From Phycisphaera sp. (GTDB taxonomy: Bacteria > Planctomycetota > Phycisphaerae > Phycisphaerales > Phycisphaeraceae), in assembly GCA_028285385.1 (NCBI GenBank), contig JANQPR010000030.1, positions 1 through 47,352 on the forward strand: a stretch of 47,352 bases of DNA. The letters are read 5' to 3'. The position numbers and the translations under genes were made by a program. Of the stretch, positions 18,286 to 41,836 are shown piece by piece. Positions within the stretch are counted from its first letter, which is position 1, and every line of letters begins with the position of its first letter. The notes beneath the pieces were generated by a model. It searched no databases, was not told the DNA's origin, and saw only the letters and a list, made by a program, of their open reading frames with translations.

Positions 18286-19050
18286 ACTTGATTCCTCTTG
18301 GCAACGCGCCGTAAGCCACGAATCATCTTGACGGGTCTTGCAGCCACCGAGTCGAGCGCGGGCTTCTTTCTCACCCTATTCCAAGCTTGCCGCCTCTCGA
18401 CTCGGGGGGTAAATAGCGACGTCGGGTGAGATCGATCTCGAAGCCGCTATCAATCCCGAGGTACTGCGTTGGGCGCGTGTTCAACGAAACACCTGTTCCA
18501 TGATTTCGATGACGGTGAGCGAGGGTGAGCCGGATCGTCCACCGAAACACCCCACACGCCCAAGGCCGGCGTGTTACTAGGCTTGTTTGGCTTGGTCGTC
18601 TGAAGCCTGGACAACTCTTCTGTCGATTGACTGCCAGTTCGTTAAGATGAGTGTGTACTGGGGTTTAGTCATCACAGACAACCTACCGTGACTTTGTGCA
18701 GAAATTGCGTCTATTGCGATATTGGTTTTCGAATGTACGAAGCCCACGTCGTGGCGCATAAAATTGATTTGCAGGCTTGACTGCTGCTTCAAGGGAGTTG
18801 TCATGCCCTCGAGTTTTCAAAGTGACTGCCTTCGATTGCTTTTCTGAACATCCGTCGACGGCAAGACAGCAACAACGACCTGCCTGGTCCCGACGCCGTT
18901 TCCGGGTTTGGACCTCCCACTTGTCCCGGTCTTGGTCTCGGTCAACAGACTTAAAGGCTTGGGTCCTCGGAGAACGGCCGTGCGTGAACGGGTAGCTGGC
19001 TCCGCGCTTCCCTTGGCCTAGATTGTCCGCACGCCACTGCCCGTGGCAAC

Positions 19051-19185
19051 GAACCCAACCGAGCCCTATACAAACCCTGCTAGTTGATCTCAGGTCGTCC
19101 AGAGAAGAAGGCCCGCCGTAAGTGACGGGCCTTTCGTGGGTTGCAAAGTAGCGGGGGCAGGATTCGAACCTGCGACCTCCGGGTT
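19051..19185. repeat. Direct-repeat copy 1: conserved block, hairpin terminator (19108-19135), then the 3' half of a minus-strand tRNA (T-arm and acceptor, 19147-19185)
   Basis: cccaaccgagccctatacaaaccctgc ... aaggcccgccgtaagtgacgggcctttc ... agtagcgggggcaggattcgaacctgcgacctccgggtt. The copy at 29877-30010 is near-identical, with diverged spacers between the blocks. Confidence 0.7.
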
Positions 19186-19371
19186 GTAAGACGCAACCGG
19201 ATGATCGCGTAATCTCTGATTGCACTTGATTTTGCGTCGTTTTCCGGATCTGAGGGCGCGGCCGAATGAGGCAGAATGTGGTGTATCGGGAGCGCGCGGC
19301 GAGCCCGATACGAGCCTTCATTGCCAGGATGAAAGCCGGTCACCGAAGCAGGTCAGGCGACGGTGCGAGAG

Positions 19372-19616: not shown

Positions 19617-19689
19617 CGGCCCTCCCCGGACTCGAACCGGGCACCTCCGGATTCAGAGTCCGGCGTGCATCCCGTTGCACCTGAGGGCT
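19617..19689 (-). tRNA. tRNA-Gln(CTG)
   Basis: Manual fold. The D-stem is gtgc/gcac. The anticodon stem is ccgga/tccgg with loop ctctgaa. The T-arm is cccgg-ttcgagt-ccggg and the discriminator is G. Confidence 0.65.
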
Positions 19690-19704
19690 TGCTTGCATTC
19701 CAAG

Positions 19705-19787
19705 TGGGACAGGACGGAGTCGAACCGCCACAGCCTTTCGGCGGCTGGTTTACAGCCAGCTGGGCTCGCCGGTGCCCAAGCTGCCCC
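19705..19787 (-). tRNA. tRNA-Tyr(GTA), type II
   Basis: Acceptor ggggcag/ctgtccc. Anticodon stem gctgg/ccagc with loop ctgtaaa. The variable arm is 14 nt long and the T-loop is ttcgact. Confidence 0.7.
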
Positions 19788-19791
19788 GCGC

Positions 19792-19838
19792 CGGAAAGTC
19801 TTCCCGCCAATGTCGCGTTTGCAGTGAAGACTTTCCGG
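19792..19838. promoter_or_regulatory. Perfect 13-bp inverted repeat hairpin between tRNA-Ser and tRNA-Tyr
   Basis: The arms ccggaaagtcttc and gaagactttccgg are separated by a 21-nt loop. Confidence 0.5.
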
Positions 19839-19847
19839 TCAGGCGTA

Positions 19848-19934
19848 GCGGAAGGCGGAGGACTCGAACCCCAAGCGGCGTACGCTCCACCCGTTTTCGA
19901 GACGGGGGCCGCCCCGACGGCGGGCTTCACCTTC
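19848..19934 (-). tRNA. tRNA-Ser(CGA), type II
   Basis: Acceptor ggaaggt/gccttcc. Anticodon stem cccgt/acggg with loop ctcgaaa. It has a long variable arm and a ttcgagt T-loop. Confidence 0.65.
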
Positions 19935-19968
19935 CGGAATGCCGCTCGCTCCAACGCGAGCAGGGTCA

Positions 19969-20039
19969 ATACCCCGTCCGGGTTTCGATCCCGGTCCTCC
20001 GGCTTGAAAGGCCGGCGTCTCGCCATTCGACCAACGGGG
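19969..20039 (-). tRNA. tRNA-Glu(TTC) with non-canonical T-loop ATCGAAA
   Basis: Acceptor gccccgt/acggggt. Anticodon stem ccggc/gccgg with loop ctttcaa. It has a 4-nt variable loop. The T-arm is ccggg-atcgaaa-cccgg. Confidence 0.55.
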
Positions 20040-20084
20040 CGTTGTCACGAGTACTGAACAGGCACGGCTTGCGCTCCTTTTCAA

Positions 20085-20172
20085 GCGGAAGGCGGTGGGC
20101 ACGATCCACAGGCGCTCGTGCGCCCCATCCGGCTAGCAACCGGAGCGGCGGCCGGCCCGCCGTTCACCTTCC
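20085..20172 (-). tRNA. tRNA-Ser(GCT), type II, non-canonical T-loop ATCGTGC
   Basis: Acceptor ggaaggt/gccttcc, the same as in Ser-CGA. Anticodon stem tccgg/ccgga with loop ttgctag. The variable arm forms ggcgc-acga-gcgcc. Confidence 0.55.
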
Positions 20173-20180
20173 AAGTCAAG

Positions 20181-20253
20181 AGGCCGGAGCGGGAATCGAA
20201 CCCGCATCTGGCGCGGTTGCAGCGCGCCGCCTTTACCATTCAGCCACCCGGCC
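20181..20253 (-). tRNA. tRNA-Cys(GCA)
   Basis: Acceptor ggccggg/tccggcc. Anticodon stem gcgcg/cgcgc with loop ctgcaac. T-arm gcggg-ttcgatt-cccgc. Confidence 0.7.
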
Positions 20254-20286
20254 ACGTTGAAGAGCGGATCAACGCGACGGAAATCG

Positions 20287-20313
20287 TGCGGCCGGCACCT
20301 TTCCGGCCGCACG
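20287..20313. terminator. GC hairpin downstream of the 274-aa gene (minus strand), terminator-like
   Basis: gtgcggccgg-cacctttc-cggccgcac. Confidence 0.4.
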
Positions 20314-20321
20314 GGTTAGGG

Positions 20322-21143
20322 TCAGTCGAGAAACGCCACGTGGCGCATCGCCCGGGCCTCGGGCTCGGTGTTCATCACGACCTCGCACCACCCGTTGAGC
20401 CGGATGGTCTTGTGGTCGGGGTGACGCACCTTGCCTCGCACAAGCAACTTGGGGTTGCGACGCATGACCTGGAACCGCTCACGGCGGGCCTGGTCGGGGT
20501 TGCGACGCATCCAATCGCGGTACTTGTCACCGGTCAGGCCGGTCGGGTGTTGGCGGCTGACGTAGACCGTCTCGCCGCCGTGACGCACCAACTCATCGAC
20601 CCAGTGCGGCTTGCTCCCCGCGCCGCGCGAGAGCGGCTCGTTGCGGAGGATCAGACGGGGGTCGATGTTCGCATCGGGACGAGGGATGAAGAACCATTCA
20701 CCCTGACGCACGAACGCGCGGTTCTTGCGTCGTCTGCCGTCCCGCGCCTTGAGCCCGACGCGGGCTTCGGCGTCGTTTACGGCATTGGGCTTGAGGGCCT
20801 GCATCGCGGTCCGGACGTTGGAAGCGCGGGCCGCTTCGGGCACCGCCGCCACGAACCAGTGGCGCTCGTCGTGACCGCAGAGGAACTTCTGCCGGCCTTC
20901 GGTCGAGTCGCGGTGGTCTACTTGCAGCAGCAGGTGCCGCTCACGGGGACGCACGTCGGTGACGTCGACGCGTTCCAGCCGGTCCGGGGCGGCCGTCAGG
21001 TTGAAAAACTCACCACGACGGTCCTGTCCGATGTCGATGCTCAGGGCGCCGGTGCGCTGCCACCACAAATGCCGCTGGGGCGGGGTGATCACAGCGCGGG
21101 CGCCCACACGGGCGAACTTCTCGATCAGCATGTCGTTGTCCAT
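20322..21143 (-). CDS. Hypothetical protein (274 aa) embedded in the tRNA array
   Basis: The start was set at MDNDMLIEKF, because the longer ORF-track extension runs through tRNA-Gly(GCC). It contains two H-x-T-x tetrads (HPTG, HKTI) of uncertain significance. Confidence 0.5.
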   Translation of the reverse strand: MDNDMLIEKFARVGARAVITPPQRHLWWQRTGALSIDIGQDRRGEFFNLTAAPDRLERVDVTDVRPRERHLLLQVDHRDSTEGRQKFLCGHDERHWFVAAVPEAARASNVRTAMQALKPNAVNDAEARVGLKARDGRRRKNRAFVRQGEWFFIPRPDANIDPRLILRNEPLSRGAGSKPHWVDELVRHGGETVYVSRQHPTGLTGDKYRDWMRRNPDQARRERFQVMRRNPKLLVRGKVRHPDHKTIRLNGWCEVVMNTEPEARAMRHVAFLD

Positions 21144-21265
21144 GACATGTCCTTTCAGGGAAGTGCGAATGTTCAGCGTCAGCGCAGGCCGACGCTTCCA
21201 TGCTTCGAGGGGGTACTGGGTTCCATCGGGTCTCCTTGAGTGAGAGGGAAAGGGGGATTCGAGCA

Positions 21266-21336
21266 ATGCGGCCGACAGGAATCGAACCTGCTCCTCCGCC
21301 GTGGCGGGGCGGCGTTCTGCCGGCGAACTCCGGCCG
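21266..21336 (-). tRNA. tRNA-Gly(GCC) with C33
   Basis: Acceptor gcggccg/cggccgc. D-stem gttc/gaac. Anticodon stem ccgcc/ggcgg with loop ccgccac. T-arm gcagg-ttcgatt-cctgt. Confidence 0.55.
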
Positions 21337-21343
21337 CATGAAT

Positions 21344-21381
21344 CGGCGTCGGGGTCGATAGACCGCGACGCCGCTGAGTTT
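21344..21381. terminator. Hairpin plus T-tract just downstream of the SPFH gene
   Basis: Stem cggcgtcg ... cgacgccg, followed by ctgagtttt on the plus strand. Confidence 0.35.
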
Positions 21382-21407
21382 TCACAAGGTCCGTGTTGAA
21401 GCACCGG

Positions 21408-22568
21408 CTACGCCTCGTTGGACTCGTTGAGTTCATCGAGTACGCAGCCCGGCTTGTCTTCCGTGGCCGTCAGGCTTCGCACCTGCCCGAGCAGGTCGCC
21501 CTGGCCGAGCACGAACGTCGCCTTCGTGCCCCGGAGCACGTCCTGCAGCGCCTCGAGTTCCTTCATTCGGGCGAGCACCGGGTTATCCGCGAGGAGCTTG
21601 GCCGTGTTCGCCTGGCTCCGGGCGGCGGCGGTCTCTTCGCGCCGACGGATCAGGTTGGCTTCGGCCTGCTTCTGGGCGAGGATCACCTCGTTGAGGATCG
21701 CCTTCATGTCGCCCGGCAGGATCACGTCCCGCAAGCCAACGCCCAGCACCTCGACGCCGAACTCGGCCGCACGCTTCAACAGCGCGTTGCGCACCTCACC
21801 GCCGACCGCGTCCTTGTCGGCCAGCAGCTTGTCGAGCGCCCGCCCGCCGACCGCTTCCCGCAATGCGAGCTGCGCCTCCCGGTACAGCGCCTGGGTGTAG
21901 TCGGCGACCGTCTCAACGGCCTTGCGCACCTCGGCCACGCGGTACGACACGACCAGGTTGATCCGCAGCGTCACCTTGTCCGCCGTCATGATCTCCTGAC
22001 CCGCCACGTCGGCCACCTGCTCGCGCAGGTCGACCGACTTCCACGTGATCTTGCCGGCGTGCTTCCAGTACACGTGCAGCCCCGGGCCGAGCTCGCTGAC
22101 CAGCCCGCCCTCCCGGAACAGGAGCACGCGCTCGTGCGCCTCGACGCGGACGCCGTCGAGGAAGTTCGCCCCGCCGCGGAAGCCGAGAATCGCCTCGATC
22201 TTCAGGTGCGTGAAGGCGAAGTCGTTGACGTTGAACGTCTCGACTTCAAGCTCGGCCGGGCCGTCCCAGAACACATGCCGTCCCGGGCCGAGGACCCAGC
22301 CGAGCCGGCCGTCTTTCCACACGAGCGCCCGCTCGTCGTCCTTGAGGTCGACCACGCGCAGCTTCTCGAGCAGCGCCGGCTCACGCACGAGCACCTCGAG
22401 GAGCTTGTGATCAAACTTGGTCTGGGTCCGGTCGACCACCTCGACGCGGTCCTTGCGCAGCCGACGCCAAGGCAGCCGGTAGGCCCCGGGGGTCAGCACC
22501 TGCTTGAAGTCGCCGTGGCGGAACCACAGGCCGACTTCGTGCTTACGGATACGAGTCTTCGCAAACAT
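21408..22568 (-). CDS. SPFH / band-7 (stomatin-prohibitin) family membrane-associated protein
   Basis: Start at MFAKTRIRK, with AAAGGAG 7 nt upstream on the coding strand. The SPFH core is LVVSYRVAEVRKAVETVADYT...ILPGDMKAI, followed by a C-terminal coiled coil. Confidence 0.75.
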   Translation of the reverse strand: MFAKTRIRKHEVGLWFRHGDFKQVLTPGAYRLPWRRLRKDRVEVVDRTQTKFDHKLLEVLVREPALLEKLRVVDLKDDERALVWKDGRLGWVLGPGRHVFWDGPAELEVETFNVNDFAFTHLKIEAILGFRGGANFLDGVRVEAHERVLLFREGGLVSELGPGLHVYWKHAGKITWKSVDLREQVADVAGQEIMTADKVTLRINLVVSYRVAEVRKAVETVADYTQALYREAQLALREAVGGRALDKLLADKDAVGGEVRNALLKRAAEFGVEVLGVGLRDVILPGDMKAILNEVILAQKQAEANLIRRREETAAARSQANTAKLLADNPVLARMKELEALQDVLRGTKATFVLGQGDLLGQVRSLTATEDKPGCVLDELNESNEA

Positions 22569-22985
22569 GGTCTTGGCTCCTTTCTCTAGGAAAGCCGGTG
22601 AGAGACACACCGCCGTGAACACCACAGCGACAGAAGGAATCGATCGAAGACGAAAATGACGTGGGCCGGTCGCGGCGCCGGGTGGCGCGACGCCGGGTCG
22701 GCGGCGGGGCCGGGCTTGAGCCGGGGCAGGGAGCGCCGTCGTGAACCGGCCGGGACGCGCCGCCGCCTCACCCCCGCGGAGTGCGGTCGGCGCGCCGGGC
22801 CGGTTCACCGTTTGGGCCGCGATGGCCCCACGCTTTGCCCCGGCGGGATCCGCCCGGCCGCAGAGCCGAGTCGCCGGTGCCGGTCGCACGACCACCGTGA
22901 TTCCGAAAACCACGGCCGCCACACGCCGACCCGCCGCGCCGGTCGGGCCACGCCGGACCCACGTCGAGGGCAGACGCTACTCGCG

Positions 22986-23035
22986 TCCAAGGAGGGGGAT
23001 TCGAACCCCGAGGGTGGGCAAACCCTTGCCGTTCC
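22986..23035 (-). pseudogene. tRNA 3'-fragment (T-arm ggggg-ttcgaat-ccccc plus acceptor) with no matching 5' half
   Basis: gagggggattcgaacccc on the plus strand. No complementary 5' acceptor or anticodon arm was found. Confidence 0.3.
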
Positions 23036-23102
23036 AGGCAGGAATCGAACCTGCGACCGACGGATTCATCGTCCGTTGCTCTAACCGACTGAGCTACTGG
23101 TT
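23030..23102 (-). pseudogene. tRNA-like (Ile/Ala-type D-arm tagctcagtcggttagagc) with aberrant anticodon loop cgatgaa and only 4 acceptor pairs; probable pseudo-tRNA
   Basis: T-arm gcagg-ttcgatt-cctgc. Anticodon stem acgga/tccgt. The acceptor pairs caaccag with ctggaac. Confidence 0.3.
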
Positions 23103-23175
23103 GATGTCAGACCGGAGTCGAACCGGTGTCTCCGGGATAACGGTCCCAGCGCTCTTCCTGTTGAGCTACTGACGC
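23103..23175 (-). tRNA. tRNA-like with abnormal anticodon loop (6- or 8-nt; stem ctggg(a)/(t)cccgg)
   Basis: Acceptor gcgtcag/ctgacat with one mismatch. D-arm tagctcaacaggaagagc. T-arm accgg-ttcgact-ccggt. The anticodon is undetermined. Confidence 0.35.
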
Positions 23176-23268
23176 CCCCGTACAGCCCGGCAGAACCCGT
23201 GTCGCGGAACGCCGACCGCTGATCGCAAAGCGAAGCGGGTGACGCCGCCGGACGAGCCGTACGGTTAA

Positions 23269-23341
23269 CACGCGCGAAAGGACTCGAACCTCTACCTTGC
23301 GGATTTGGAATCCGCCGCTCTACCGATTGAGCTACACGCGC
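23269..23341 (-). tRNA. tRNA-Trp(CCA)
   Basis: Anticodon stem gcgga/tccgc with loop ttccaaa. D-arm tagctcaatcggtagagc. T-loop ttcgagt. Confidence 0.7.
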
Positions 23342-23364
23342 AGACAATGCGATCCCAAGCATAG

Positions 23365-23436
23365 CTGCACCGGCAGGAGTCGAACCCGCAACCCGCTCCT
23401 TAACAGGGAGCCGCACTACCGTTGTGCTGCGGTGCA
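23365..23436 (-). tRNA. tRNA-Asn(GTT)
   Basis: Acceptor tgcaccg/cggtgca. D-stem gcac/gtgc. Anticodon stem gctcc/ggagc with loop ctgttaa. Confidence 0.7.
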
Positions 23437-23602
23437 TTTGGACCGAAGTGACCGAATATTTTCGTTGACAACTCCGACATGATGGCTTTATGGTCGAGTC
23501 GGACGCGGCGCGATGTCGTACCCGTCACTGCGTGCCCACCGCGGCGATTTCGGGTGGCCGTTGGTTCATCCCAGAACCGTATTTTGGTCAAGGAGGAGTT
23601 TC

Positions 23603-24313
23603 ATGCGCTGTCTATGCTTTGCTTCTGTCGCGGTGGTGGTTTGTTTGACATCGGTTAGCTCCGCCATGGCGGCTATCGATCCGGTGGGCTCGAGCCTGAC
23701 GACGGCCACCAATGTCCGCGTGCCGACCAACAACACCCTCGACTCGGATACCGACACCGATTCCCAAGGGGCCGTGATCCTTCCGTTGGACTCGTCGGTT
23801 TCGTCGAGTTTCTCCAGTATCAACGGATCGATTCAGTCGGACGCTACGGCGAACGCGACCTGGAGCGGCCCCGGCGAAGGCAGCTTGACTTACGAGTTTG
23901 TTTCGAATGTCGAGGCCATCAATTTGAACAGCCCGGGGACCTCGTCTTCATACGAGTGGACTTACAGCTTTATCCTCGACCAACCCGCCGAACTGTCCTT
24001 CGTGGCGGAATCGGTCCTTCAGTTCAATGACAATCCGTCGCGAGTTGACCAGTTCATCTTTTTCACGATCGACGGCGTCAGGCAGGAGGCCAACGGTCCC
24101 ACGATGAGGAGTCTTGCCATCGGCGCTCATACGATTGGATTCGATAACTTCCTGGGCGTCGGTGGCGGAGGTAGTTCTACTAACGTTACTCGGCTCTCCC
24201 CCGGTTCGGTCGATTGGCGGATCACGATCGTGCCTGAGCCGGCTTCCTGTCTTGTGTTCGCCTCGATGGCTTCGGTCTTTTTGATGCCGCGTCGAATCTG
24301 TTCTTGCCGTTAG
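23603..24313 (+). CDS. PEP-CTERM secreted protein (third paralogue class), located inside the tRNA array on the opposite strand
   Basis: AAGGAGG RBS. Signal peptide MRCLCFASVAVVVCLTSVSSAMA. C-terminal IVPEPASCLVFASMASVFLMPRR. Confidence 0.6.
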   Translation: MRCLCFASVAVVVCLTSVSSAMAAIDPVGSSLTTATNVRVPTNNTLDSDTDTDSQGAVILPLDSSVSSSFSSINGSIQSDATANATWSGPGEGSLTYEFVSNVEAINLNSPGTSSSYEWTYSFILDQPAELSFVAESVLQFNDNPSRVDQFIFFTIDGVRQEANGPTMRSLAIGAHTIGFDNFLGVGGGGSSTNVTRLSPGSVDWRITIVPEPASCLVFASMASVFLMPRRICSCR

Positions 24314-24347
24314 TGGTACTTGGGCCACCGTGTTTCACGGCTATCAA

Positions 24348-24420
24348 CCGCCCCGGCGGGACTCGAACCCGCACCATCCCGTTTAGAAGACGGGTGCTCT
24401 TCCGGTTAAGCGACGGGGCA
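24348..24420 (-). tRNA. tRNA-Arg(TCT)
   Basis: Anticodon stem cccgt/acggg with loop cttctaa. T-arm gcggg-ttcgagt-cccgc. Confidence 0.65.
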
Positions 24421-24500
24421 CCCCGGAAGGGGCGTGCGTGGCGGCGGCGAGCAGTTTGGTCATGCGCCATCGCTTGCGAGAGATCCGGAGACCAAGGAGA

Positions 24501-24573
24501 AGCTGGCGGCCGGATTCGAACCGGCGTGATCCGTATTACGAGTACGGCGCTTGAGCCACTCAGCCACACCAGC
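24501..24573 (-). tRNA. tRNA-Thr(CGT)
   Basis: Acceptor gctggtg/cgccagc. Anticodon stem ccgta/tacgg with loop ctcgtaa. T-arm gccgg-ttcgaat-ccggc. Confidence 0.65.
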
Positions 24574-24584
24574 GCTGGAGTAAG

Positions 24585-24657
24585 TGACCCCCGTGGGATT
24601 CGAACCCACACCCAACGGATTAAAAGTCCGCTGCTCTGCCGATCGAGCTACGGGGTC
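24585..24657 (-). tRNA. tRNA-Lys(TTT)
   Basis: D-arm tagctcgatcggcagagc. Anticodon stem gcgga/tccgt with loop cttttaa. T-arm gtggg-ttcgaat-cccac. Confidence 0.7.
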
Positions 24658-24686
24658 GACGCCACAGATCGACAACCAACTTGGAA

Positions 24687-24760
24687 TGAAACGGGTGGGC
24701 CACGATCCCACAACCTGCCGGTTAAGAGCCGGCTGCTCTGCCTGTTTGAGCTACCGTTTC
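24687..24760 (-). tRNA. tRNA-Lys(CTT) with non-canonical T-loop ATCGTGG
   Basis: Acceptor gaaacgg/ccgtttc. Anticodon stem gccgg/ccggc with loop ctcttaa. Confidence 0.55.
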
Positions 24761-25473
24761 AGAAAAAAAGGCTTTAGCGCAAGTTCTTGCCTTCTTGCCG
24801 GTGATCGCCCGGCGGGTCTGACCCGCCGAACGCTGCACACGGGGTGGTTAGCCCCTGCACCGACTTTGCCCCTGTTGTTGCGGTGTTGGCCGCACGCAAC
24901 AGCACGCAGGTCCTGCACGGCTGTTCTGAGGTAGGTGTCGAAGGTTGGCCGACCCCGACACCGCTCCCATCCGTTTTGGACGCCTGGGACGTCCGCCGCC
25001 GATCCCTTTCGGGCAGGCGCGGCCGGGTTTCCCCTGCCGCCGTAGGCACTTCCAGACTCGTGCAGTGACGCCTTGCGCGGTCTCCCGCGCTTTCCCAGGA
25101 CCACAACCCGGCGCTCAGAGAGCTGCCTCCGGGTTTCTAGAGTGGTCGATCGGTTCCTGCGATAGGCATCCCAATCCGCAGGTTCCGCGGGCCCGCACTC
25201 CGTGGGTGGCACCACGGCTCAAGGCCCTTGGCTGCTAAGGGTTTCACGCCTGCCACGGCGCTGATCCCTCCCCGGGCGGGTCGGCATCGTTGCGGCGCTG
25301 CCACGCCGCTCAGCCGAGCCGGGTTCCCCCTATCACGCGTTCGCGTGCCCGCCGCCCCGATCAGGCAGACAGGTTTGGTTCCCGAGGGCTGGGAGAACCG
25401 ACCCGACACGCACCTCACGTGTCGGAGCCGGGTAGGAGAGAAAAAGCATTTGAAACCAACACGCCGGCCGGGC

Positions 25474-26706
25474 TCAGTCCTTGTAGGGGTCGAGCTCGTC
25501 CTCGCCCGCCATCGCCACACCGATCGGCGTGAGCGTGTGGACAATGCGCACGGTGTCGCCGTGGGCCGCGAGCACCTCGGGGAGGCGCTTGTAGCAGTGC
25601 GGCGACTCGTCGGTGCCGGCGCCGCGAAGCTCGACACCGGCCTTCTTGACCCAGGCCTTCATCATCGCCGGGGTGATCTGGCCTTCGGTCTTGCGAACAA
25701 AACCTCCGGCCTTCTTGTCCCAGCGCTTCTTGCCTGCGGCCTGGGTCCGGCTCATCACCCGCCCGGCGCCGTGGACGGTCGAGTGCAGCGTCTTGACGCC
25801 GTCCTCGCTCTCGACCCCCTCGAGGACGACCGAGATGTCGCCCATCGACCCGCCGACAAACCCGCGTTGCCCCGGGAACGCCGGCGTCGCGCCCTTGCGG
25901 ACGACCCAGACTTCGAGCTCGTGGCCGTCGATCTCTTGGGTTTCCTTCCAGGCGAAGTTGTGGTGGTTGTGAACCTCCTCCACGATCTTCGTCTTGAGGA
26001 GCCGGGCGACCTTCTGGCACACCCAGTCGCGGCCCGCATAGGCGTAGCGCCCCGCCAGGTGCATGCACCGCAGGTACGACTCGCCCAGGTGGGAGTGCTC
26101 GTGGAACAGTACCGGCGCGACGTGCATGCCGTCCGTGCCACCGCCTTTCTCCACAAAGAACTTCGCGAGCCGGTGGCCGAGGCCGCGGGAGCCAAAGTGC
26201 ACGCCGCACCACACGCGGTCTTGCTCGTCCACGAACAGGTCGACGTAGTGGTTACCCGAGCCGACGGTACCGAGCTGCTTACGGGCCAACTCTTTGAGGT
26301 TCTGTGCGCCGCGGACGCGGATGCGCAGGCCATCGACGAGGCCCCATGCTTCGTCATCGAACAGTTCGTGGTCGACGTCCTCCTGGTTCTTCCGGCCGAC
26401 GCCGAATGAGATCTCCCGGTAGATCAGGTCCATGATCTTGCCGATGCCGCGCTTGACGTCATCGGCCTTGAGGTCGAGGCGGACGGCCTTGTTGCCGCAG
26501 GCGATGTCGTAGCCCACGCCGGACGGCGAGACCATGCCGTGGTACGCCACCACGCCGCCGATCGGCATCGCGTAGCCGACGTGGTGGTCACCCATCAGTG
26601 CCCCGGCCGCCGCGTCCTTGTCGGCCAGGCAGGTCTGGATCTGACGCACGGCCTGCGCATCTGGCACGCCCCAGACCGGCACGCCTTCCATCATCGTGCA
26701 ACCCAT
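25474..26706 (-). CDS. rtcB: RNA-splicing ligase RtcB (3'-phosphate/5'-OH RNA ligase)
   Basis: The conserved RtcB blocks are full length: GYAMPIGGV, GYDIACG, GSGNHYVDL, HFGSRGLGH and GAGR. The start was set at MGCTMMEG; the ORF-track N-terminal extension overlaps tRNA-Gly(TCC). Confidence 0.85.
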   Translation of the reverse strand: MGCTMMEGVPVWGVPDAQAVRQIQTCLADKDAAAGALMGDHHVGYAMPIGGVVAYHGMVSPSGVGYDIACGNKAVRLDLKADDVKRGIGKIMDLIYREISFGVGRKNQEDVDHELFDDEAWGLVDGLRIRVRGAQNLKELARKQLGTVGSGNHYVDLFVDEQDRVWCGVHFGSRGLGHRLAKFFVEKGGGTDGMHVAPVLFHEHSHLGESYLRCMHLAGRYAYAGRDWVCQKVARLLKTKIVEEVHNHHNFAWKETQEIDGHELEVWVVRKGATPAFPGQRGFVGGSMGDISVVLEGVESEDGVKTLHSTVHGAGRVMSRTQAAGKKRWDKKAGGFVRKTEGQITPAMMKAWVKKAGVELRGAGTDESPHCYKRLPEVLAAHGDTVRIVHTLTPIGVAMAGEDELDPYKD

Positions 26707-26756
26707 GTCACACCTCGCTTCCTTTCTACGTTCTCGTGTTTCTTCTTGGTGTTCAA

Positions 26757-26830
26757 TGCGTCGTGCCGGAATCGAACCGGCGGCCTCCGGATTGGAAGTC
26801 CGGCGCTCGGCCATCGTGAGCTCACGACGC
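26757..26830 (-). tRNA. tRNA-Gly(TCC)
   Basis: Acceptor gcgtcgt/acgacgc, a perfect pair. Anticodon stem ccgga/tccgg with loop cttccaa. It lies 50 nt upstream of the rtcB start. Confidence 0.75.
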
Positions 26831-26887
26831 GGAGGGTCTGCATCCTGCCGCTCCGAGCGAATCATTCCTTAAAAGTAGTAGTCACGG

Positions 26888-27142
26888 TTAACGCCGTCGT
26901 ACCGGCCCGTCTTCATGCAGCACTTCTTGAAAGGACTTGCCGGAACCGCAGGGGCAGCGGTCGTTGCGCCCGAGCTTCTCGATCAACTCCTTGTTGCCGT
27001 GCACGACCCGGTTGCCGCGCTTGACGTTCGTTTCGGACGGGAACCCTTTCCTTCGCTTGCTGGTGACCTCAAAAATAGAACTCGTCGTACGTCTCGTTGT
27101 GTGGATGCACGGGGCACCTCCTTTCAAATGGAAAGTGATCAA
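26888..27142 (-). CDS. Small SEC-C zinc-motif protein (84 aa)
   Basis: C-terminal [14 protein letters not shown] is a SEC-C metal-binding motif. The start codon abuts the tRNA-Pro(CGG) 3' end, so the true start and expression are uncertain. Confidence 0.35.
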
Positions 27143-27143
27143 G

Positions 27144-27217
27144 TCAGGGCAGCAGGACTCGAACCTGCGACCTCCCCGATCCGAACGGGGCGCTCTGGCC
27201 GGCTGAGCTACACCCTG
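27144..27217 (-). tRNA. tRNA-Pro(CGG)
   Basis: Anticodon stem ccccg/cgggg with loop ttcggat. D-arm tagctcagccggccagagc. Confidence 0.7.
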
Positions 27218-27271
27218 GCGATGGTGTGGTGAGTCACGCGGACGACGCGCAACCTCCCATGGCTAGGCAAG

Positions 27272-27346
27272 GGTGACGGACGGGACTCGAACCCGCTTCC
27301 GCCGGGTTCACCGCCCGGCACCTCGGCCACTTCGGCTTCCGCCACC
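27272..27346 (-). tRNA. tRNA-His(GTG)-like: 8-bp acceptor stem (G-1:C73) but G33 in the anticodon loop
   Basis: Acceptor ggtggcgg/ccgtcacc. Anticodon stem (g)ccggg/cccgg(c) with loop cggtgaa. T-arm gcggg-ttcgagt-cccgt. Confidence 0.45.
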
Positions 27347-27393
27347 ATCAACCCCGGGGCGCAGTCAAGCTTCGCGGCTTACTTCCGGGGGAA

Positions 27394-27466
27394 TCAGAGC
27401 GGCAGGGTTCGAACCTGCGGCCTCCCGGTCCCAAGCCGGGCGCTCTGCCGACCGAGCTCCGCTCTG
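27394..27466 (-). tRNA. tRNA-Pro(TGG)
   Basis: Acceptor cagagcg/cgctctg (C1:G72). Anticodon stem cccgg/ccggg with loop cttggga. Confidence 0.7.
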
Positions 27467-27481
27467 TCGCGATCAACGCGG

Positions 27482-27552
27482 TGGAGAAGGCGGGACTCGA
27501 ACCCGCATCACCCGCTTGCAAGGCGGGGGCTCTTCCGTTGAGCTACATCCCC
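27482..27552 (-). tRNA. tRNA-Ala(TGC)
   Basis: The G3:U70 identity pair is present. Anticodon stem cccgc/gcggg with loop cttgcaa. Confidence 0.65.
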
Positions 27553-27564
27553 GAGACAATCGAA

Positions 27565-27638
27565 TATCGCCGGGAGGATTCGAACCTCCAACCCCCGGGA
27601 TCTCGGCCCGGGCCCTCTGCCAGTTGGGGTACGGCGAC
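27565..27638 (-). tRNA. Class-I tRNA with anticodon GAG (nominally Leu) and C33; discriminator A73
   Basis: Acceptor gtcgccg/cggcgat. D-arm ta-cccc-aactggca-gagg. Anticodon stem ccggg/cccgg with loop ccgagat. The variable loop is 5 nt. Confidence 0.45.
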
Positions 27639-27657
27639 ACGTTGGTGACACGACAAA

Positions 27658-27730
27658 TACCGCCGGCAGGATTCGAACCTGCACTGAACCGATTCTGAGT
27701 CGGTGCCCTCTTCCGTTGGGGTACGGCGGC
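27658..27730 (-). tRNA. Class-I tRNA with anticodon CAG (nominally Leu), short variable loop; discriminator A73; paralogue of the preceding gene
   Basis: Acceptor gccgccg/cggcggt. Anticodon stem accga/tcggt with loop ctcagaa. The variable loop is tcagt. Confidence 0.5.
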
Positions 27731-27751
27731 TGATCAGGCGTAAGACAGCAG

Positions 27752-27823
27752 TCACTCCGGCAAGACTCGAACTTGCAGCCTTCGGCTTCGGAAACCGATG
27801 CTCTTCCGTTGAGCTACGGAGTG
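27752..27823 (-). tRNA. tRNA-Arg(CCG)
   Basis: Acceptor cactccg/cggagtg. Anticodon stem tcggt/gccga with loop ttccgaa. Confidence 0.65.
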
Positions 27824-27866
27824 TCGTAGGTGCGATCAACCGGCAGTAACGGGCGTGCCCGATGAA

Positions 27867-27937
27867 CGAGGCCGGCGGGAGTCGAACCCGCAACCGCCGG
27901 TTCAAAGCCGGCCGCTCTGCCGTTGAGCTACGGCCCG
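27867..27937 (-). tRNA. tRNA-Gln(TTG)
   Basis: Anticodon stem gccgg/ccggc with loop ctttgaa. T-arm gcggg-ttcgact-cccgc. The 1:72 pair is a mismatch. Confidence 0.6.
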
Positions 27938-27947
27938 GTTGTCGCAG

Positions 27948-28020
27948 TCACCCCGGCAGGACTCGAACCTGCAACCGCCGGATTCGTAGTCCGGGGCTCT
28001 TCCGATTGAGCTACGAGGTG
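27948..28020 (-). tRNA. tRNA-Arg(ACG)
   Basis: Acceptor cacctcg/cggggtg. Anticodon stem ccgga/tccgg with loop ctacgaa. Confidence 0.7.
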
Positions 28021-28026
28021 ATCCAA

Positions 28027-28100
28027 CGGCACTGGCGGGCCTCGAACCCGCGACCTCTTCCGTGACAGGGAAGCGCTCTGGCCAACTGAGCTACAGCACC
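28027..28100 (-). tRNA. tRNA-Asp(GTC)
   Basis: Anticodon stem cttcc/ggaag with loop ctgtcac. D-arm tagctcagttggccagagc. Confidence 0.7.
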
Positions 28101-28185
28101 TTCGAGCCGTGCAGGGCCAAGCCCCCGTGCGTCGTCGTCCGCCTTACCGCGACGCGCGTCTATAACACGGCTCGTGGCACGCCAA

Positions 28186-28257
28186 TCGACCCGGGAGGAT
28201 TCGAACCTCCGGCCTGCCGGTTATCAGCCGGCCGCTCTGCCACTGAGCTACGGGTCA
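28186..28257 (-). tRNA. tRNA-Ile(GAT)
   Basis: Anticodon stem gccgg/ccggc with loop ctgataa. T-arm ggagg-ttcgaat-cctcc. Confidence 0.7.
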
Positions 28258-28262
28258 GTTGC

Positions 28263-28312
28263 GACGGCCCGCCGACCCCCCGGCGCCCGATTGCGCCGGG
28301 GGCGGGCCGTCG
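28263..28312. promoter_or_regulatory. Long GC-rich hairpin (~19 bp in two stem segments) inside the tRNA array
   Basis: gacggcccg...cccccggcgc-ccgattg-gcgccggggg...cgggccgtc. Confidence 0.45.
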
Positions 28313-28361
28313 TCGTTGCATTGATCCGCTCTTCACTTGTCAAAGAACTCGTCACTCGTTT

Positions 28362-28380
28362 CGCGTGAACCGTTCACGCG
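28362..28380. promoter_or_regulatory. Perfect 19-bp palindrome (operator-like) upstream of tRNA-Phe
   Basis: cgcgtgaac-c-gttcacgcg. Confidence 0.4.
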
Positions 28381-28414
28381 TTCCGTCCAACCCCCCACAT
28401 ACTTCCGGGGGCAG

Positions 28415-28486
28415 CCGCTGGTCCAGGAATCGAACCTGGGGCTCCCGCTTTTCACGCGGGCGCTTTGCCGGCTAAGCGAACCAGCG
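28415..28486 (-). tRNA. tRNA-Phe(GAA)
   Basis: Acceptor cgctggt/accagcg. Anticodon stem cccgc/gcggg with loop gtgaaaa. Confidence 0.7.
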
Positions 28487-28496
28487 TTCCGTCCAA

Positions 28497-28569
28497 TCGC
28501 CGCGGCCGGATTCGAACCGGCAGCCTCCTCGTTGTGAGCGAGGCGCTCTCGCCGTTGAGCTACGCGGCA
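28497..28569 (-). tRNA. tRNA-Val(CAC)
   Basis: Anticodon stem cctcg/cgagg with loop ctcacaa. T-arm gccgg-ttcgaat-ccggc. Confidence 0.65.
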
Positions 28570-28647
28570 GCTTTGGCACGCCGACCGCGCAGACGAACCA
28601 AGTCGTCTTCAGCGGCGCGGAAGGACGTGTCGTCGTCGGGTTGTCAG

Positions 28648-28720
28648 TAGCGGCGGCGGGATTCGAACCCGCGGTCTCGAGAACATGACTCTCGCGAGGA
28701 CTCCGCTCCTCTACGCCGCG
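28648..28720 (-). tRNA. tRNA-Met(CAT) with initiator-like traits (unpaired C1/U72, A11:U24)
   Basis: Acceptor cgcggcg/cgccgct. D-stem gagg/cctc. Anticodon stem cgaga/tctcg with loop gtcatgt. Confidence 0.55.
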
Positions 28721-28735
28721 TCCTTTCGTCGTCAG

Positions 28736-28807
28736 TCGCGATGGCTGGATTTGAACCAGCGACCTCTCCCGTATGAAGGGCGTGCTCTGCCGTTGAGCTA
28801 CATCGCG
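28736..28807 (-). tRNA. tRNA-Met or Ile2 (CAT), elongator-type
   Basis: Acceptor cgcgatg/catcgcg. Anticodon loop ttcatac. T-arm gctgg-ttcaaat-ccagc. Confidence 0.55.
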
Positions 28808-28861
28808 TGTTGGTCATGGGTTTCCTTCGTCGTGCTTCCGGCTTTGGGCTTTGCGTTCGAG

Positions 28862-28933
28862 TGGTCACGGTTGGATTCGAACCAACGACTTCCTGCTTGT
28901 CGTGCAGGCGATCTTCCGCTGATCTACGCGACC
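28862..28933 (-). tRNA. tRNA-Val(GAC) with C33
   Basis: Acceptor ggtcgcg/cgtgacc. Anticodon stem cctgc/gcagg with loop acgacaa. Confidence 0.55.
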
Positions 28934-28942
28934 GGGGCAAAG

Positions 28943-29014
28943 TGACCTTGGCGGGACTCGAACCCGCAAGCTCCGCCTTGAGAGGGCGGCGTGCTGCCGT
29001 TGCACCACAAGGCC
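28943..29014 (-). tRNA. tRNA-Glu(CTC)
   Basis: Acceptor ggccttg/caaggtc. Anticodon stem ccgcc/ggcgg with loop ctctcaa. Confidence 0.65.
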
Positions 29015-29848: not shown

Positions 29849-29876
29849 TCATCCCGATGCTCGGTCAGGATCGACA

Positions 29877-30010
29877 AGCCCAACCGAGCCCTATACAAGC
29901 CCTGCCGCCACCACTGAGGCGGTCGACGAAAAAAGGCCCGCCGTAAGTGGCGAGCCTTTCATCGTTTAGAAAGTAGCGGGGGCAGGATTCGAACCTGCGA
30001 CCTCCGGGTT
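29877..30010. repeat. Direct-repeat copy 2 (block, hairpin terminator 29933-29960, tRNA 3' half 29971-30010)
   Basis: aagcccaaccgagccctatacaagccctgc ... aggcccgccgtaagtggcgagcctttc ... agtagcgggggcaggattcgaacctgcgacctccgggtt. It diverges from copy 1 exactly inside the anticodon loop. Confidence 0.7.
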
Positions 30011-30135
30011 ATGAGCCCACTACTGAGGTTTCCCGCAACGTCTTGACTGAACAACTGCTGCAGTCGTCCACGAGAGTTATGGCCTCTCGACAGCCACGCC
30101 CATGTTACTCATGTAGGTCATGTTTTTCAGCTCAT

Positions 30136-30306: not shown

Positions 30307-33300
30307 TCATTCTTTCGAAGAAGCTTGCACATTCTCGAAGATCCTTTGCCAGTGCTGCAGATGGCGGCTCATCGCCGGGTCGCTGTAAAGGTGTGCGAGC
30401 GCATCCCGTCGCTGTTCACGATCAAACGGGATCACGGGGAGCTTGATGCATTGTTGCCAAACCTGACCGAGAATCGTCGCCGGCGTACTAGGGCTCGGGG
30501 CGTTCCTAGCATCGTATTCCACGATCTCCCACCCGTCGCCGGCGCCAGTTATGTCTAAGGAGTTTAGGTCAACAACCGGGTCCGACAGCGAGCCTTCGAA
30601 TTCGAACTTCGACTGCACTTGGAGCTGCATCGATCGCACCGTCATTAGTGCCTGCGCTACCGGCCGACTGCAGTATTTCCCCGATGAACGTTTGATGCCC
30701 CTGTAGATTAAATCAATAACATCGCGATAGATACGTGAGGTTTTTCTCGGATCAGTGGAGATGCTGTTGGTGAGGCGTTGAAACATCTCTTCTGCTTCAC
30801 CAATGTCGAGCCTACTTGTGGGCTCGTGTAGGTCAATTGCACCATACATGTAAATTTCCTCGATGTCGTCAAGTAGATCTTTGCGATTTAAGTAGTCAGC
30901 ATTTTGATCGTAGTACTCGATCGCCGCACGCAGATGATTTGGTTGCTGCGTGTCCATCATCAGCGAGCGCTGTAGTTCACGCGTCCGCGCCAAGTTATCG
31001 AAACTCGACCTTTGTTCGAAATCTAAAACAAGATTTTCGAGGCGTTCACGTAGGTGACTAGCAAGCTCGCGTTGGGTTTTCCGCCCAAACCGCTCTCCGA
31101 GGGCCCTCGTGAAACGTCGAACCGTGCGTTTGCTTGTGTTGTGGGCGAATTGCCAAGGAGACGAATCAAGAATCTCTGCTAGTTGATATAGCCGATGCTC
31201 ATCCTGTTCGGGTACCACAGAATGATCGACAAACGCGCCGCGACGAGACAAACTCTTCAGACCAAGTTTTTCTCGTCCAAACCAGTACGAGTTTCCTCCC
31301 ACTGCGAAAGCTTGAGTTTCCTGTCCCATGAGTTTTTCAATACGCCGAAGATCGGTGTCACTATTCACCCAAACCACTCGATCGACTTTGAGACGAGGCA
31401 TAAAGGTGGGATCCCAGACGCACGCCCCCTGAGGTGACGCTACCCAGCCGATCCCGTGGCTCTTGCTATCGATCGCAGGATGGGACTGCAACTGTTCAGG
31501 CGGCGTTACATTCATTGCGCGGGGATTGGGCGGGCCGCTCGGTGCGGCTACCGCAAGAAGAGCTGCGAGATTTCGGTAAACGTCCTCCTTTATCTCAGGC
31601 AAGAAGGAGATGCGCTCGTAATCGACGTTCAGCCGATCCAGGGTGAGCGGGAGCTTCCCATCTCTGTCAAAGACGGAGAGCGAGGGCATCGCCAACGAAG
31701 GCGGTTCCTTGTAGCCATGACCCGCTGAAATGTTGGGCGCGCTCTCAAGCGCTGGTAACCCACTCGCCTCTCGCTGGATGATAATCCCGTTGCAGACGAG
31801 CGCCGGGGCGTCGCCATAAGTCCAGCCGACGCGAAGGTAATCTTCCGGGGTGAGCCAGTGATAATCGTCGGGCGACGTATCGACCGTCGCCGGTAATTTG
31901 ACAGACTGTGGTAGCTCTTGGCCAATGGTCGAGACTCGGCGAATCGAAGGCCAGTCCAGACAGTACCAATCCCAGGATTCGGCAAGGCTTTCTTCTTGCT
32001 TCTCGCTGTTTGACTGCTGCATAAAAGCTGGCGGGCTGGTGGTGATCACTTCGACTCGTGTACCCGGTTGGTCACGCACCACGTGCTCGATCGCAAGCGG
32101 TCGGTCAGTTAATGATGCCGTGAAGGTTAGACCCCGCTCGGGTTCCGCCAGTACGTGTCGCGTTGTGACTCGGAGTTGCACCAATCGGGGGTCGTCAGCA
32201 ACCAGAAATGCGGCGAGAGCGCCGACGCCGAAGCGGCCCGATCGGAGCACAACCGATCTACCTGAGTCATCCTGGAAGCTTTTCTTCCACACCATTGAAG
32301 AACGAAACGATGCGCCCGCGTTCAGAAAGTAGCGTTGCAGGGTATCAAAGGTCATCCCCATTCCACCATCATCGATGATCAGCGACCATATGCCGTCTTC
32401 GTGTTTTTTTATCTGGACCTCGACGTGGGGCTGCCGGTCGGCGTCATTCTCGAGCCCAAGCGCTCTACGCTCGCGGACTGCATCAACTGCGTTCTGTACC
32501 AACTCGCGTACCGCGATCTCCGGGCGATCTCCGTACAACGGCTTGATGAGTAACTTAAGCAACTCGGCGTCGGCGGCGGAGAAGGTAACGCGGCAGGGCA
32601 CAAATCCCGCTTCCTTACCGAACGTATCTACATCATCAATGTTAGATCGAATCCGTCTGATGTTCAGACCCAAGAGCTTCTCTTGGTATCGCCCAAACAC
32701 CTCGCCCAGGACTGCCCATGAGGTATCGAGCTCGAACTGGATCGCATGCAGCCATTCTTGGGCCCGCAAGAAAAGCTCGATCGATGTGCGTTTGGGGTTG
32801 ATCTTGACCTCGACGACTTCGGGGTCTTCGTTTTTGTCGTAGACAATGTCCTGGACGATGTTGTGTACCCCCCACTCGACCTTACTCTTGGGGGACTTGA
32901 TACCGATGACTTTGAAAATCTGATTGGGCGCGCGATCGGACTGCAGTTGGAGGTAGTCGGCGATGCGCAACAGGACCATCAAGTACACCGTGTGTGTACC
33001 GTGGAACTCACGGACTTGGAACTTGCTGCTGAGGTAATCCAACAAGCAACGGATTGTGGTCCCGTGGCTGCGTGCGATCAAACCGGCAAGGTTGAGTTTA
33101 GGCTCGGCATCGTTGGAGCGTGGGGGGAAATCAGTTTCCGCCGACGCCAAGGCGGGCAGCCCTTTTATGGCCATTTCGTGAGCTAAGCGGTGGTGGTAGC
33201 GGCGGATGAACTCACCAATGTACGCGTGTTGGATCGGGCTCCAAGATTCTGCATTCTCAATTTCGGGCGCCTCGATCGGCTCATCAACGCCGAATAGTTC

Positions 33301-33723: not shown

Positions 33724-33729
33724 TGGAAC

Positions 33730-34254
33730 CTACTTGATTCGAGGTAACATGCAAAACTCAATGAACATCGCCATGCTTCCGACGAACACGATTACGGCGA
33801 TTAATAGCCAAGTCTCGCACCACCGCCATAAACTCGCCAACGAAGGTCTTTTCCGGTAACCGAGGCCAATCACCTCGTCGAACAGATCACATTCTTCGTC
33901 GCGGTTATCCCACCATGAGCCAACAGACGAAACAATCGTTGCCAACATGAAAATACCGACGCCGATTAACAGCCACTGAATGGCTCGCACGGCGATCCTA
34001 GCGTCCTCGGCTTCAAGCCCGACCTTTTCCCAGCTTGAGTAAGCAGTCACTCCGGCGATGACCAAGGCGGTGGAAATGGCTTGGAAGAACGACAGTGCTT
34101 TGAAGGTGTAGTCATTAAGTGACGCTTGCCGTTTGTGTACGAACTTCAGGCGCTCGAGCTTATAACCTTCCTGAAGGCCTTTGGCTTGCTCGTCAGTTGA
34201 ATTTGGGGTCCCCGTTCGCTGAGTGTTGGGATGGTCAGAGATATGAGTTGGCAT
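33730..34254 (-). CDS. Small membrane protein (3 predicted TM helices), operon partner
   Basis: Hydrophobic segments ALSFFQAISTALVIAGVTAY, WLLIGVGIFMLATIVSSV and LLIAVIVFVGSMAMFIEF. There is a 6-nt gap to the downstream gene. Confidence 0.5.
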   Translation of the reverse strand: MPTHISDHPNTQRTGTPNSTDEQAKGLQEGYKLERLKFVHKRQASLNDYTFKALSFFQAISTALVIAGVTAYSSWEKVGLEAEDARIAVRAIQWLLIGVGIFMLATIVSSVGSWWDNRDEECDLFDEVIGLGYRKRPSLASLWRWCETWLLIAVIVFVGSMAMFIEFCMLPRIK

Positions 34255-34338
34255 TATATACCCTGCGGATTGAAAGAAGGAAGACTCGGCGGCACTGCGC
34301 CGCGGCCCTGGAAGAGTTGAAATTCGATTCGCTTGGGA

Positions 34339-36345: not shown

Positions 36346-36406
36346 AAATACCCGGTCTTGTAGTCCTGCAGTTGATCCGCTTGGTTGGGTTTGTCACACG
36401 AGAGCA

Positions 36407-41675: not shown

Positions 41676-41836
41676 GACGGCCAGATGGTAGGTGCCGCCG
41701 TGATGGTCGGGCTTATCTCGGGCCAACGCGTTTGATACGACGCGACGTGATCAGCCGCGTTCGTGACTCCGCGTGATCCACTCCACGGCCTTCTGCCCGG
41801 CGCCGGCGGCGTGGACGGCGAGGCGTTTGTCGGACT

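Follow-up and report, generated by a model that had tools for sequence, protein, structure and literature searches.

Two adjacent tRNA genes on a contig of Phycisphaera sp. (Planctomycetota) carry leucine anticodons, CAG and GAG, on bodies from which the long variable arm of canonical type II tRNA-Leu, a stem-loop of more than 10 nt, is absent; both of their variable loops are 5 nt long. The genes lie in a large tRNA array within the 47,352-nt stretch of DNA that was analysed, hereafter the window. An earlier note, made by reading this DNA, had left three options for them: leucine tRNAs of unusual architecture, tRNAs of switched identity, or decoys. The question raised by the locus is which of these they are, and whether the array provides for leucine at all.

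Results

Two intact genes with short variable loops

ARAGORN and Rfam agree on two tRNA genes with anticodons CAG and GAG, located where the earlier note had placed them (Table 1), and the Rfam tRNA model RF00005 scores the CAG gene at 52.9 bits and the GAG gene at 48.4 bits, against a gathering score of 29. The two are 74% identical to each other. In both, the sequence reads as a 7-bp acceptor stem starting with G1.U72, U8 together with A14 (U8:A14), an anticodon at positions 34-36 of a 7-nt loop, and the T-loop UUCGAAU; CCA is encoded in neither. The core of the CAG gene comprises G1.U72, U8, A9, the D-stem C10-C12/G23-G25 and the D-loop AACGGAAG, and its 3′ part has the anticodon loop CUCAGAA, the variable loop UCAGU and A73. 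The GAG gene, which also begins with G1.U72, has the same D-arm with a 9-nt D-loop, AACUGGCAG, followed by the anticodon loop CCGAGAU, in which C33 replaces U33, the variable loop GGGUU and A73. Sequence reading and RNAfold concur on perfect 5-bp anticodon stems (ACCGA/UCGGU and CCGGG/CCCGG), the MFE and centroid folds of both genes are plain cloverleaves, and no disabling mutation was seen in the sequence features or RNAfold structures of either gene.

The earlier description of two class I tRNAs with leucine anticodons, A73, perfect anticodon stems and 5-nt variable loops is thus borne out by ARAGORN, Rfam, sequence reading and RNAfold. That description had also reckoned with a long variable arm missed on first reading. 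Refolding returned cloverleaves with 5-nt loops and no extra arm, and an overlooked arm is ruled out because total lengths of 73 and 74 nt, together with the folds, leave no space for one.

Anticodon-independent membership in a type I tRNA-Leu family

Relatives were sought with a pattern that specifies the D-arm and T-loop only, leaves the anticodon free and allows up to 48 nt between its parts, so that long-armed relatives could also match; it was searched in one genome per bacterial species and in IMG/VR. The pattern matched at least 119 genome loci and 93 viral loci. Among the matches listed, one of the six leucine anticodons was present in 122 of 123 genome tRNAs and in 88 of 99 viral-contig tRNAs, or 210 of 222 from more than 200 loci when the two are taken together, and every matching tRNA was 73-79 nt long. 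The exceptions are one phage clade with anticodon GTG and C73, and two single genes whose anticodons are TGG and CGC. The phage clade (IMG/VR; L125, L126, L131, L165, L174, L181, L190, L197, L207 and L210) has the type I Leu body TACCCCAAYTGGTAGAGGG and may represent a possible change of identity from Leu to His. The TGG gene (L074:3057-3129) is a stand-alone Planctomycetota gene with a type I Leu body and A73.

Pattern matches plus other short Leu-anticodon tRNAs from the same loci gave 267 unique sequences, nearly all with A73 (265/267), C12-G23 (262/267) and C13 opposite A22 (259/267). The variable loop is 5 nt long in 240 of the 267, the D-loop has 9 nt (AAYNGGNAG) in 185 and 8 nt in 73, and 91 begin with G1.U72. 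The signature of the family reads U8, A9, N10-N25, C11-G24, C12-G23 and C13 followed by an extra or mismatched A22, with the D-loop AAYNGGNAG, which is Leu-like, a variable loop of 5 nt whose last residue is U48, and A73. Both window genes carry every element of this body (A9, C12-G23, C13/A22, AAYNGGNAG and A73).

In an alignment of 100 diverse family members (A1), the cloverleaf is 98.2% paired, with double-sided changes at 19 of 20 pairs. The same alignment corrects one detail of the earlier description, in which the D-stem had been given as cccc/gagg. In that register pairing reaches only 67.5%, and one of the pairs is formed in no sequence; the true pairs, C10-G25, C11-G24 and C12-G23, are 99.7% paired, and the 10-25 pair shows double-sided changes in 34 of the 100 sequences (CG 66, GC 24, UA 6, AU 4). 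C13 is either unpaired opposite A22 or paired to G21 with A22 bulged. A few sequences suggest the latter arrangement (13-21 combinations in A1: CG 95, UA 3, GC 1, GU 1), which also appears in the MFE fold.

Isotype was assessed with surrogate profiles, one per isotype, built from all tRNAs of the fetched loci except those of the window, the anticodon positions being masked. The type I Leu profile scored 56.0 bits on the CAG gene, with Arg next best at 30.6, and 46.5 bits on the GAG gene, with Pro next best at 22.5; these margins of about 24 bits are the widest of any tRNA in the array, and the weight of the test lies on them and on the anticodon-free pattern rather than on raw counts, since the set used for profiles and nearest neighbours was collected with a motif from the window genes, so that type I Leu is over-represented and its profile deeper. 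A type II Leu profile gave the window genes only 13-18 bits (nhmmer). On sequence grounds, the two genes belong to a family of bacterial type I tRNA-Leu, in which the variable loop is short. Among the three options of the earlier note, leucine tRNAs of unusual architecture are therefore favoured by family membership and leucine anticodons, the masked profiles speak against switched identity, and the decoy option found no specific support.

The array and its surroundings

The array contains 31-33 genes in 9.4 kb, about 3.3 per kb, and covers 20 of 20 amino acids, exceeding the published thresholds for a tRNA array unit (at least 20 tRNA genes at 2 or more per kb; PMC4758250). As the earlier note had claimed for the array, type II tRNA-Leu is absent, and this extends to the whole 47-kb window, in which ARAGORN, Rfam, nhmmer with type I and type II Leu profiles, and blastn with type II Leu genes from sister arrays found neither a type II tRNA-Leu nor any Leu-anticodon tRNA beyond the two genes. 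Long arms are kept for Ser and Tyr and not for Leu, the only type II tRNAs of the array being Tyr(GTA), Ser(GCT) and a Ser(CGA)-like gene. The last was considered as a tRNA-Sec or a hidden type II Leu gene and rejected as either, for it reads Ser(CGA) with G73; a Ser(cga) gene occupies the equivalent position in sister array L081.

Table 1. Features of the window (positions on the forward strand; a dot marks a feature without strand).
Feature	Position	Strand	Remarks
Direct repeat, left copy	19049..19190	.	about 140 nt
tRNA array	19617..29014	-	one strand; ARAGORN 31 genes, Rfam adds candidates 19850-19935 and 23034-23100
tRNA-Tyr(GTA), type II	19704-19787		in array
Ser(CGA)-like tRNA, type II	19850..19935	-	G73; missed by ARAGORN; sub-threshold Rfam tRNA-Sec match, 35.3 bits
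tRNA-Ser(GCT), type II	20085-20172		in array
tRNA-Gly(GCC)	21266-21338	-	loop CCGCCAC, no U33
SPFH/Band 7 protein gene	21408..22922	-	inside array; also conserved in sister arrays L118 and L053
RtcB RNA ligase gene	25474..26865	-	inside array
tRNA-His(GTG)	27271-27345	-	loop CGGUGAA, no U33
tRNA-Leu(GAG), type I	27565..27638	-	74 nt; ARAGORN, Rfam, sequence reading, RNAfold; loop CCGAGAU, no U33
tRNA-Leu(CAG), type I	27658..27730	-	73 nt; ARAGORN, Rfam, sequence reading, RNAfold
tRNA-Val(GAC)	28861-28933	-	loop ACGACAA, no U33
Direct repeat, right copy	29874..30015	.	about 140 nt
Low-GC stretch (53-58%)	30307-42853	-	adjoins array
HD-CE + HATPase_c_3 protein	30307-33723		low-GC stretch
Sel1-repeat protein	36407-37684		low-GC stretch; weak Lit-peptidase match (PADLOC E = 5e-5)
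Patatin-like protein	39016-40776		low-GC stretch
ArdC-N + PolyVal metallopeptidase domain protein	41837-42853		low-GC stretch
DnaE-like polymerase	43709-46942		after low-GC stretch

Two adjoining calls within the array are of uncertain type: ARAGORN reads a 2-base anticodon, 'gt', at 23102-23176 (minus strand; Rfam tRNA 43 bits), and 23034-23100 (minus strand) is called by Rfam only, at 48.9 bits, with the anticodon loop CGAUGAA, which lacks U33. In sister arrays the corresponding calls are Asp(atc) or Glu(ctc).

The array is bracketed by the two copies of a direct repeat, spaced 10,825 bp apart, which share an identical 35-nt core and are 83-91% identical over the remainder. Read on the minus strand, both copies include what resembles the 3′ half of a tRNA (a CUCAUAA loop remnant, the T-arm and CCCCGCUAC), and the pair looks like the attL and attR sites of an element inserted at a tRNA 3′ end; no integrase was found. 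Because of these repeats and the adjoining low-GC island, the array is probably foreign. A GH95 ORF also flanks it; its only match is on a 3.6-kb Logan contig from SRR20820731, and exact-protein look-ups for RtcB and the DnaE-like ORF returned no record. PADLOC and PHROGs scans of neighbouring ORFs gave weak or generic matches only, and megablast of the array gave no match to phage records and only a 41-nt chance match to plasmids. Gene number and density, RtcB, the bracketing repeats and the low-GC neighbourhood together fit a tRNA array unit that looks horizontally mobile.

Sister arrays in other Planctomycetota

The earlier note had pointed to other tRNA arrays as the place to look for homologues, and there the same two genes were found, at the same positions. 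Contigs of metagenome-assembled genomes from Phycisphaeraceae and other Planctomycetota (L118, L053, L023, L049, L050, L102, L081, L091, L020 and L106) share the gene order ...Arg(acg), Gln(ttg), Arg(ccg), Leu(cag) type I, [Leu(taa) type II], [Leu(caa) type I], Leu(gag) type I, Ala(tgc)..., where brackets mark the two genes that the window lacks, and the RtcB and SPFH genes that they have in common with the window are 75-80% identical to its copies at the nucleotide level. Compared with its anticodon masked, each window gene falls closest to the genes of the same anticodon in these syntenic arrays, and the orthologues have diverged through compensatory substitutions in both the acceptor and the anticodon stem. 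This pattern, seen in at least seven diverged Planctomycetota arrays, indicates purifying selection on structure and anticodon.

Six of the sister arrays (L118, L053, L023, L049, L050 and L102) have a type II Leu(UAA) gene, usually accompanied by a type I Leu(CAA) gene, between the CAG and GAG genes. In the window this interval is a spacer of about 18 nt (27639-27657) containing neither, and the tight spacing makes loss of Leu(UAA) and Leu(CAA) from the window array the likelier explanation. With neither gene present, the window array cannot by itself read UUA, UUG or CUA.

Position 33

U33 is near-universal in tRNAs. Four tRNAs of the array lack it (Table 1), and in each the next residue is G34. 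Among unique type I Leu genes of the fetched loci, C33 is present in 20 of 48 GAG genes, 2 of 53 CAG genes and 0 of 72 CAA genes; it is kept in all seven aligned Leu(GAG) genes from the window and six sister Planctomycetota arrays, and two type II Leu(GAG) genes from phage arrays have it as well. In the GAG tRNA of the window, C33 could impair decoding.

Distribution of the family

Type I tRNA-Leu genes with all six leucine anticodons occur in several hundred loci among the matches listed. The family is found in arrays of Planctomycetota, Proteobacteria, Omnitrophota and Bacteroidales, in many viral contigs and in two cultured phages; GenBank annotates pairs of 76-77 nt tRNA-Leu genes that belong to it in the Mycobacterium abscessus prophage prophi86-1 and in Bacillus phage P59. 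There are also stand-alone chromosomal members (L005, L007, L018, L026, L038, L054, L086 and many other genome loci), among them CAA genes in many Actinomycetota and Chloroflexota, TAA genes in Coriobacteriia, Paracoccus and Tepidisphaeraceae, TAG genes in Acidimicrobiales, and a CAG and GAG pair in Actinomadura and Spirillospora. The Tepidisphaeraceae, a family of the class Phycisphaerae, to which the Phycisphaeraceae genomes with the arrays nearest to that of the window also belong, provide a chromosome on which a stand-alone type I tRNA-Leu(UAA) gene lies beside LOG and MurJ genes, in a housekeeping context.

Discussion

Function of the two tRNAs

We propose that the two genes encode leucine-accepting decoders of CUG and of CUC/CUU which belong to the type I tRNA-Leu family and form part of a mobile back-up array, a reading that we regard as probable. 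It builds on the observed integrity of the genes, their place in the family, the conservation of anticodon and position, and structural covariation. Both tRNAs would be transcribed with the rest of the array, receive CCA from a host enzyme and be charged with leucine by the host LeuRS; the CAG tRNA would then read CUG, and the GAG tRNA would read CUC and CUU. In ten Pfam-supported ORFs of the window, CTG (33%), CTC (33%) and CTT (11%) together make up 77% of leucine codons, and in two genes inside the array the three exceed 90%. The weak step is charging by the host LeuRS, which we infer from conservation across arrays, from the presence in both genes of U8:A14 and the 5-nt variable loop, elements needed for leucylation by the Streptomyces coelicolor enzyme, ScoLeuRS (PMC6614811), and from the stand-alone Tepidisphaeraceae gene.

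The probable role of the array is to sustain translation while housekeeping tRNAs are in short supply or have been cleaved, for example through toxins, defence nucleases or translational stress. In Anabaena, L-arrays and rtcB are regulated together, and arrays and rtcB have been linked to survival under translational stress (PMC8421152), while phage tRNAs have been linked to escape from tRNA-cutting defences (PMC10264068); on these precedents, we take the two genes to be, most probably, working leucine tRNAs in a mobile back-up set. An apparent anomaly of the locus is thereby removed, in that leucine is provided for in the array and nothing points to a recoding of CUN.

A more far-reaching reading is that type I tRNA-Leu represents a single old, horizontally mobile lineage that became the usual leucine adaptor of phage and mobile-element arrays in many phyla, and that the missing arm and the frequent C33 of GAG isoacceptors are anti-defence adaptations. 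If true, such tRNAs would escape toxins and nucleases that recognise type II tRNAs or the U33-G34 step, and yet stay chargeable by many LeuRS enzymes. The breadth and the signature of the family are documented above, and nuclease resistance is conjecture; we consider this extended reading rather unlikely as it stands.

Alternative readings

Intact tRNAs may also act mainly as decoys or sponges, expressed in bulk so as to soak up tRNA-targeting toxins or nucleases and to protect housekeeping tRNA-Leu while contributing little to decoding. A sponge role has been proposed for array tRNAs in a system where only array tRNAs were cleaved (Santamaria-Gomez et al.; PMC8421152), and the RtcB gene inside the array and the four array tRNAs without U33, which may decode less efficiently, are compatible with it. 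Nevertheless, a sponge would hardly account for anticodons that are conserved in each orthologous lineage across diverged arrays and match the three commonest leucine codons, or for the retention of A73, U8:A14 and the 5-nt variable loop, and bait meant for enzymes directed at type II tRNA-Leu ought to have retained the long arm. We therefore judge a predominant decoy function improbable.

The genes could instead be non-functional passengers of a horizontally acquired array, in a host whose LeuRS, like that of E. coli, cannot charge type I tRNA-Leu. Competence for this substrate varies even within Streptomyces (PMC6614811), the direct repeats and low-GC island suggest a foreign origin, and two genes known from sister arrays, type II Leu(UAA) and type I Leu(CAA), have been lost here. 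Against this, neither gene has a disabling mutation that we could see, at least seven diverged Planctomycetota arrays retain both with compensatory changes, and a chromosome of the class Phycisphaerae bears a stand-alone type I tRNA-Leu in a housekeeping context. This possibility, too, appears small. The weakest reading, that another class I isotype gained a leucine anticodon and CUN is misread as another amino acid, may be set aside as very improbable, because, even though anticodon shifts do occur on the type I Leu body (the GTG/C73 phage clade and the Planctomycetota gene with TGG), masked type I Leu profiles exceed those of any other isotype by about 24 bits for both genes, only Leu genes appear among the nearest neighbours, the D-loop is built as in type II tRNA-Leu, A73 is shared with it, and there is no G3.U70, no G-1/C73 and no other foreign identity mark.

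Comparison with known systems

The window array resembles the L-arrays and tRNA array units of bacteria, plasmids and phages in having more than 20 tRNAs at more than 2 per kb on one strand, specific for 20 amino acids, and in belonging to a class of elements that are patchily distributed, mobile and rtcB-associated (PMC4758250, PMC5966550, PMC8421152, PMC12803027); it differs from other L-arrays in its Phycisphaerae-like context, its SPFH gene and its flanking 140-nt repeats. A tRNA-Leu(TAG) with a short variable loop was remarked upon in a mycobacterial tRNA cluster (Behra et al.; PMC6582537), and type I tRNA-Leu as a general feature of arrays is not discussed in the tRNA-array literature examined.

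Type I and canonical type II tRNA-Leu are alike in A73, the length of the D-arm, a 3-bp D-stem, the D-loop AAYNGGYAG followed by A22, and A15 with U48. The 5′ consensus sequences from the same loci, GCCCCCGTACCCCAACTGGCAGAGGGA for type I and GCCCGTGTGGCGGAATTGGTAGACGCG for type II, have the same length and D-loop; type II tRNA-Leu differs in having G10-C25, G12-C23, G9 and G13 in place of the C10-G25, C12-G23, A9 and C13 of type I. The features listed for bacterial tRNA-Leu include A14, A15 with U48 and A73, as well as G1.U72, which many members have (PMC6614811), and G1.U72 is found in E. coli type II tRNALeu(UAA) (as cited in PMC6614811). The type I body thus looks like a tRNA-Leu minus its arm, and not like a recruit from another class I family.

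A bacterial tRNA-Leu with a short variable loop, which the earlier note had set against the usual long arm, is not without precedent. Of the five tRNA-Leu isoacceptors of S. coelicolor, one, tRNALeu(CAA), is of type I and has a variable loop of 5 nt (Fan et al. NAR 2019; PMC6614811), and the single LeuRS of this organism leucylates this tRNA in vitro at about half the efficiency of type II, in a reaction for which U8:A14 and the length of the 5-nt loop matter and A73 does not (PMC6614811). The gene resisted attempts at deletion, an outcome that the authors connect with how often UUG codons are used (PMC6614811). Charging of type I tRNA-Leu is decided by the leucine-specific domain of LeuRS (PMC6614811), and because the LeuRS enzymes of E. 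coli and of one other Streptomyces cannot charge the S. coelicolor tRNA (PMC6614811), chargeability depends on the host. By its published description, this tRNA is like those of the window in its leucine anticodon, 5-nt loop, U8:A14, G18G19 and A73 and in the lack of an extra arm; its variable loop, ACAGC, resembles the commonest loops of the family, ACAGU and UCAGU, and related actinomycete CAA genes share the family signature. It differs in being encoded by a single chromosomal gene that resisted deletion, and in reading UUG, whereas the window genes read CUG and CUC/CUU and reside in a mobile array of 33 genes, both with G1.U72 and one with C33. Animal mitochondrial type I tRNA-Leu is also alike by description: its variable loop is short, its discriminator is A73, and a bacterial-type LeuRS charges it. 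The S. coelicolor tRNA is a substrate of human mitochondrial LeuRS, and ScoLeuRS fails on human mitochondrial tRNA-Leu (PMC6614811), so that the identity sets of the mitochondrial and S. coelicolor types differ.

In textbooks and in the sole biochemical paper, bacterial type I tRNA-Leu is a rarity of some Streptomyces, whereas our searches find several hundred loci, among the matches listed, for which a simple sequence signature is now available. Such breadth implies that the ability of LeuRS enzymes to charge armless tRNA-Leu is far more widely distributed than has been described, and it offers a natural set of armless variants for work on LeuRS recognition and on tRNA-targeting defence. The wider pattern, with six leucine anticodons, many phyla, phages and frequent C33 in GAG isoacceptors, may merit a census and biochemistry. 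Type I tRNA-Leu as such has been described before, but its breadth seems to have been under-appreciated.
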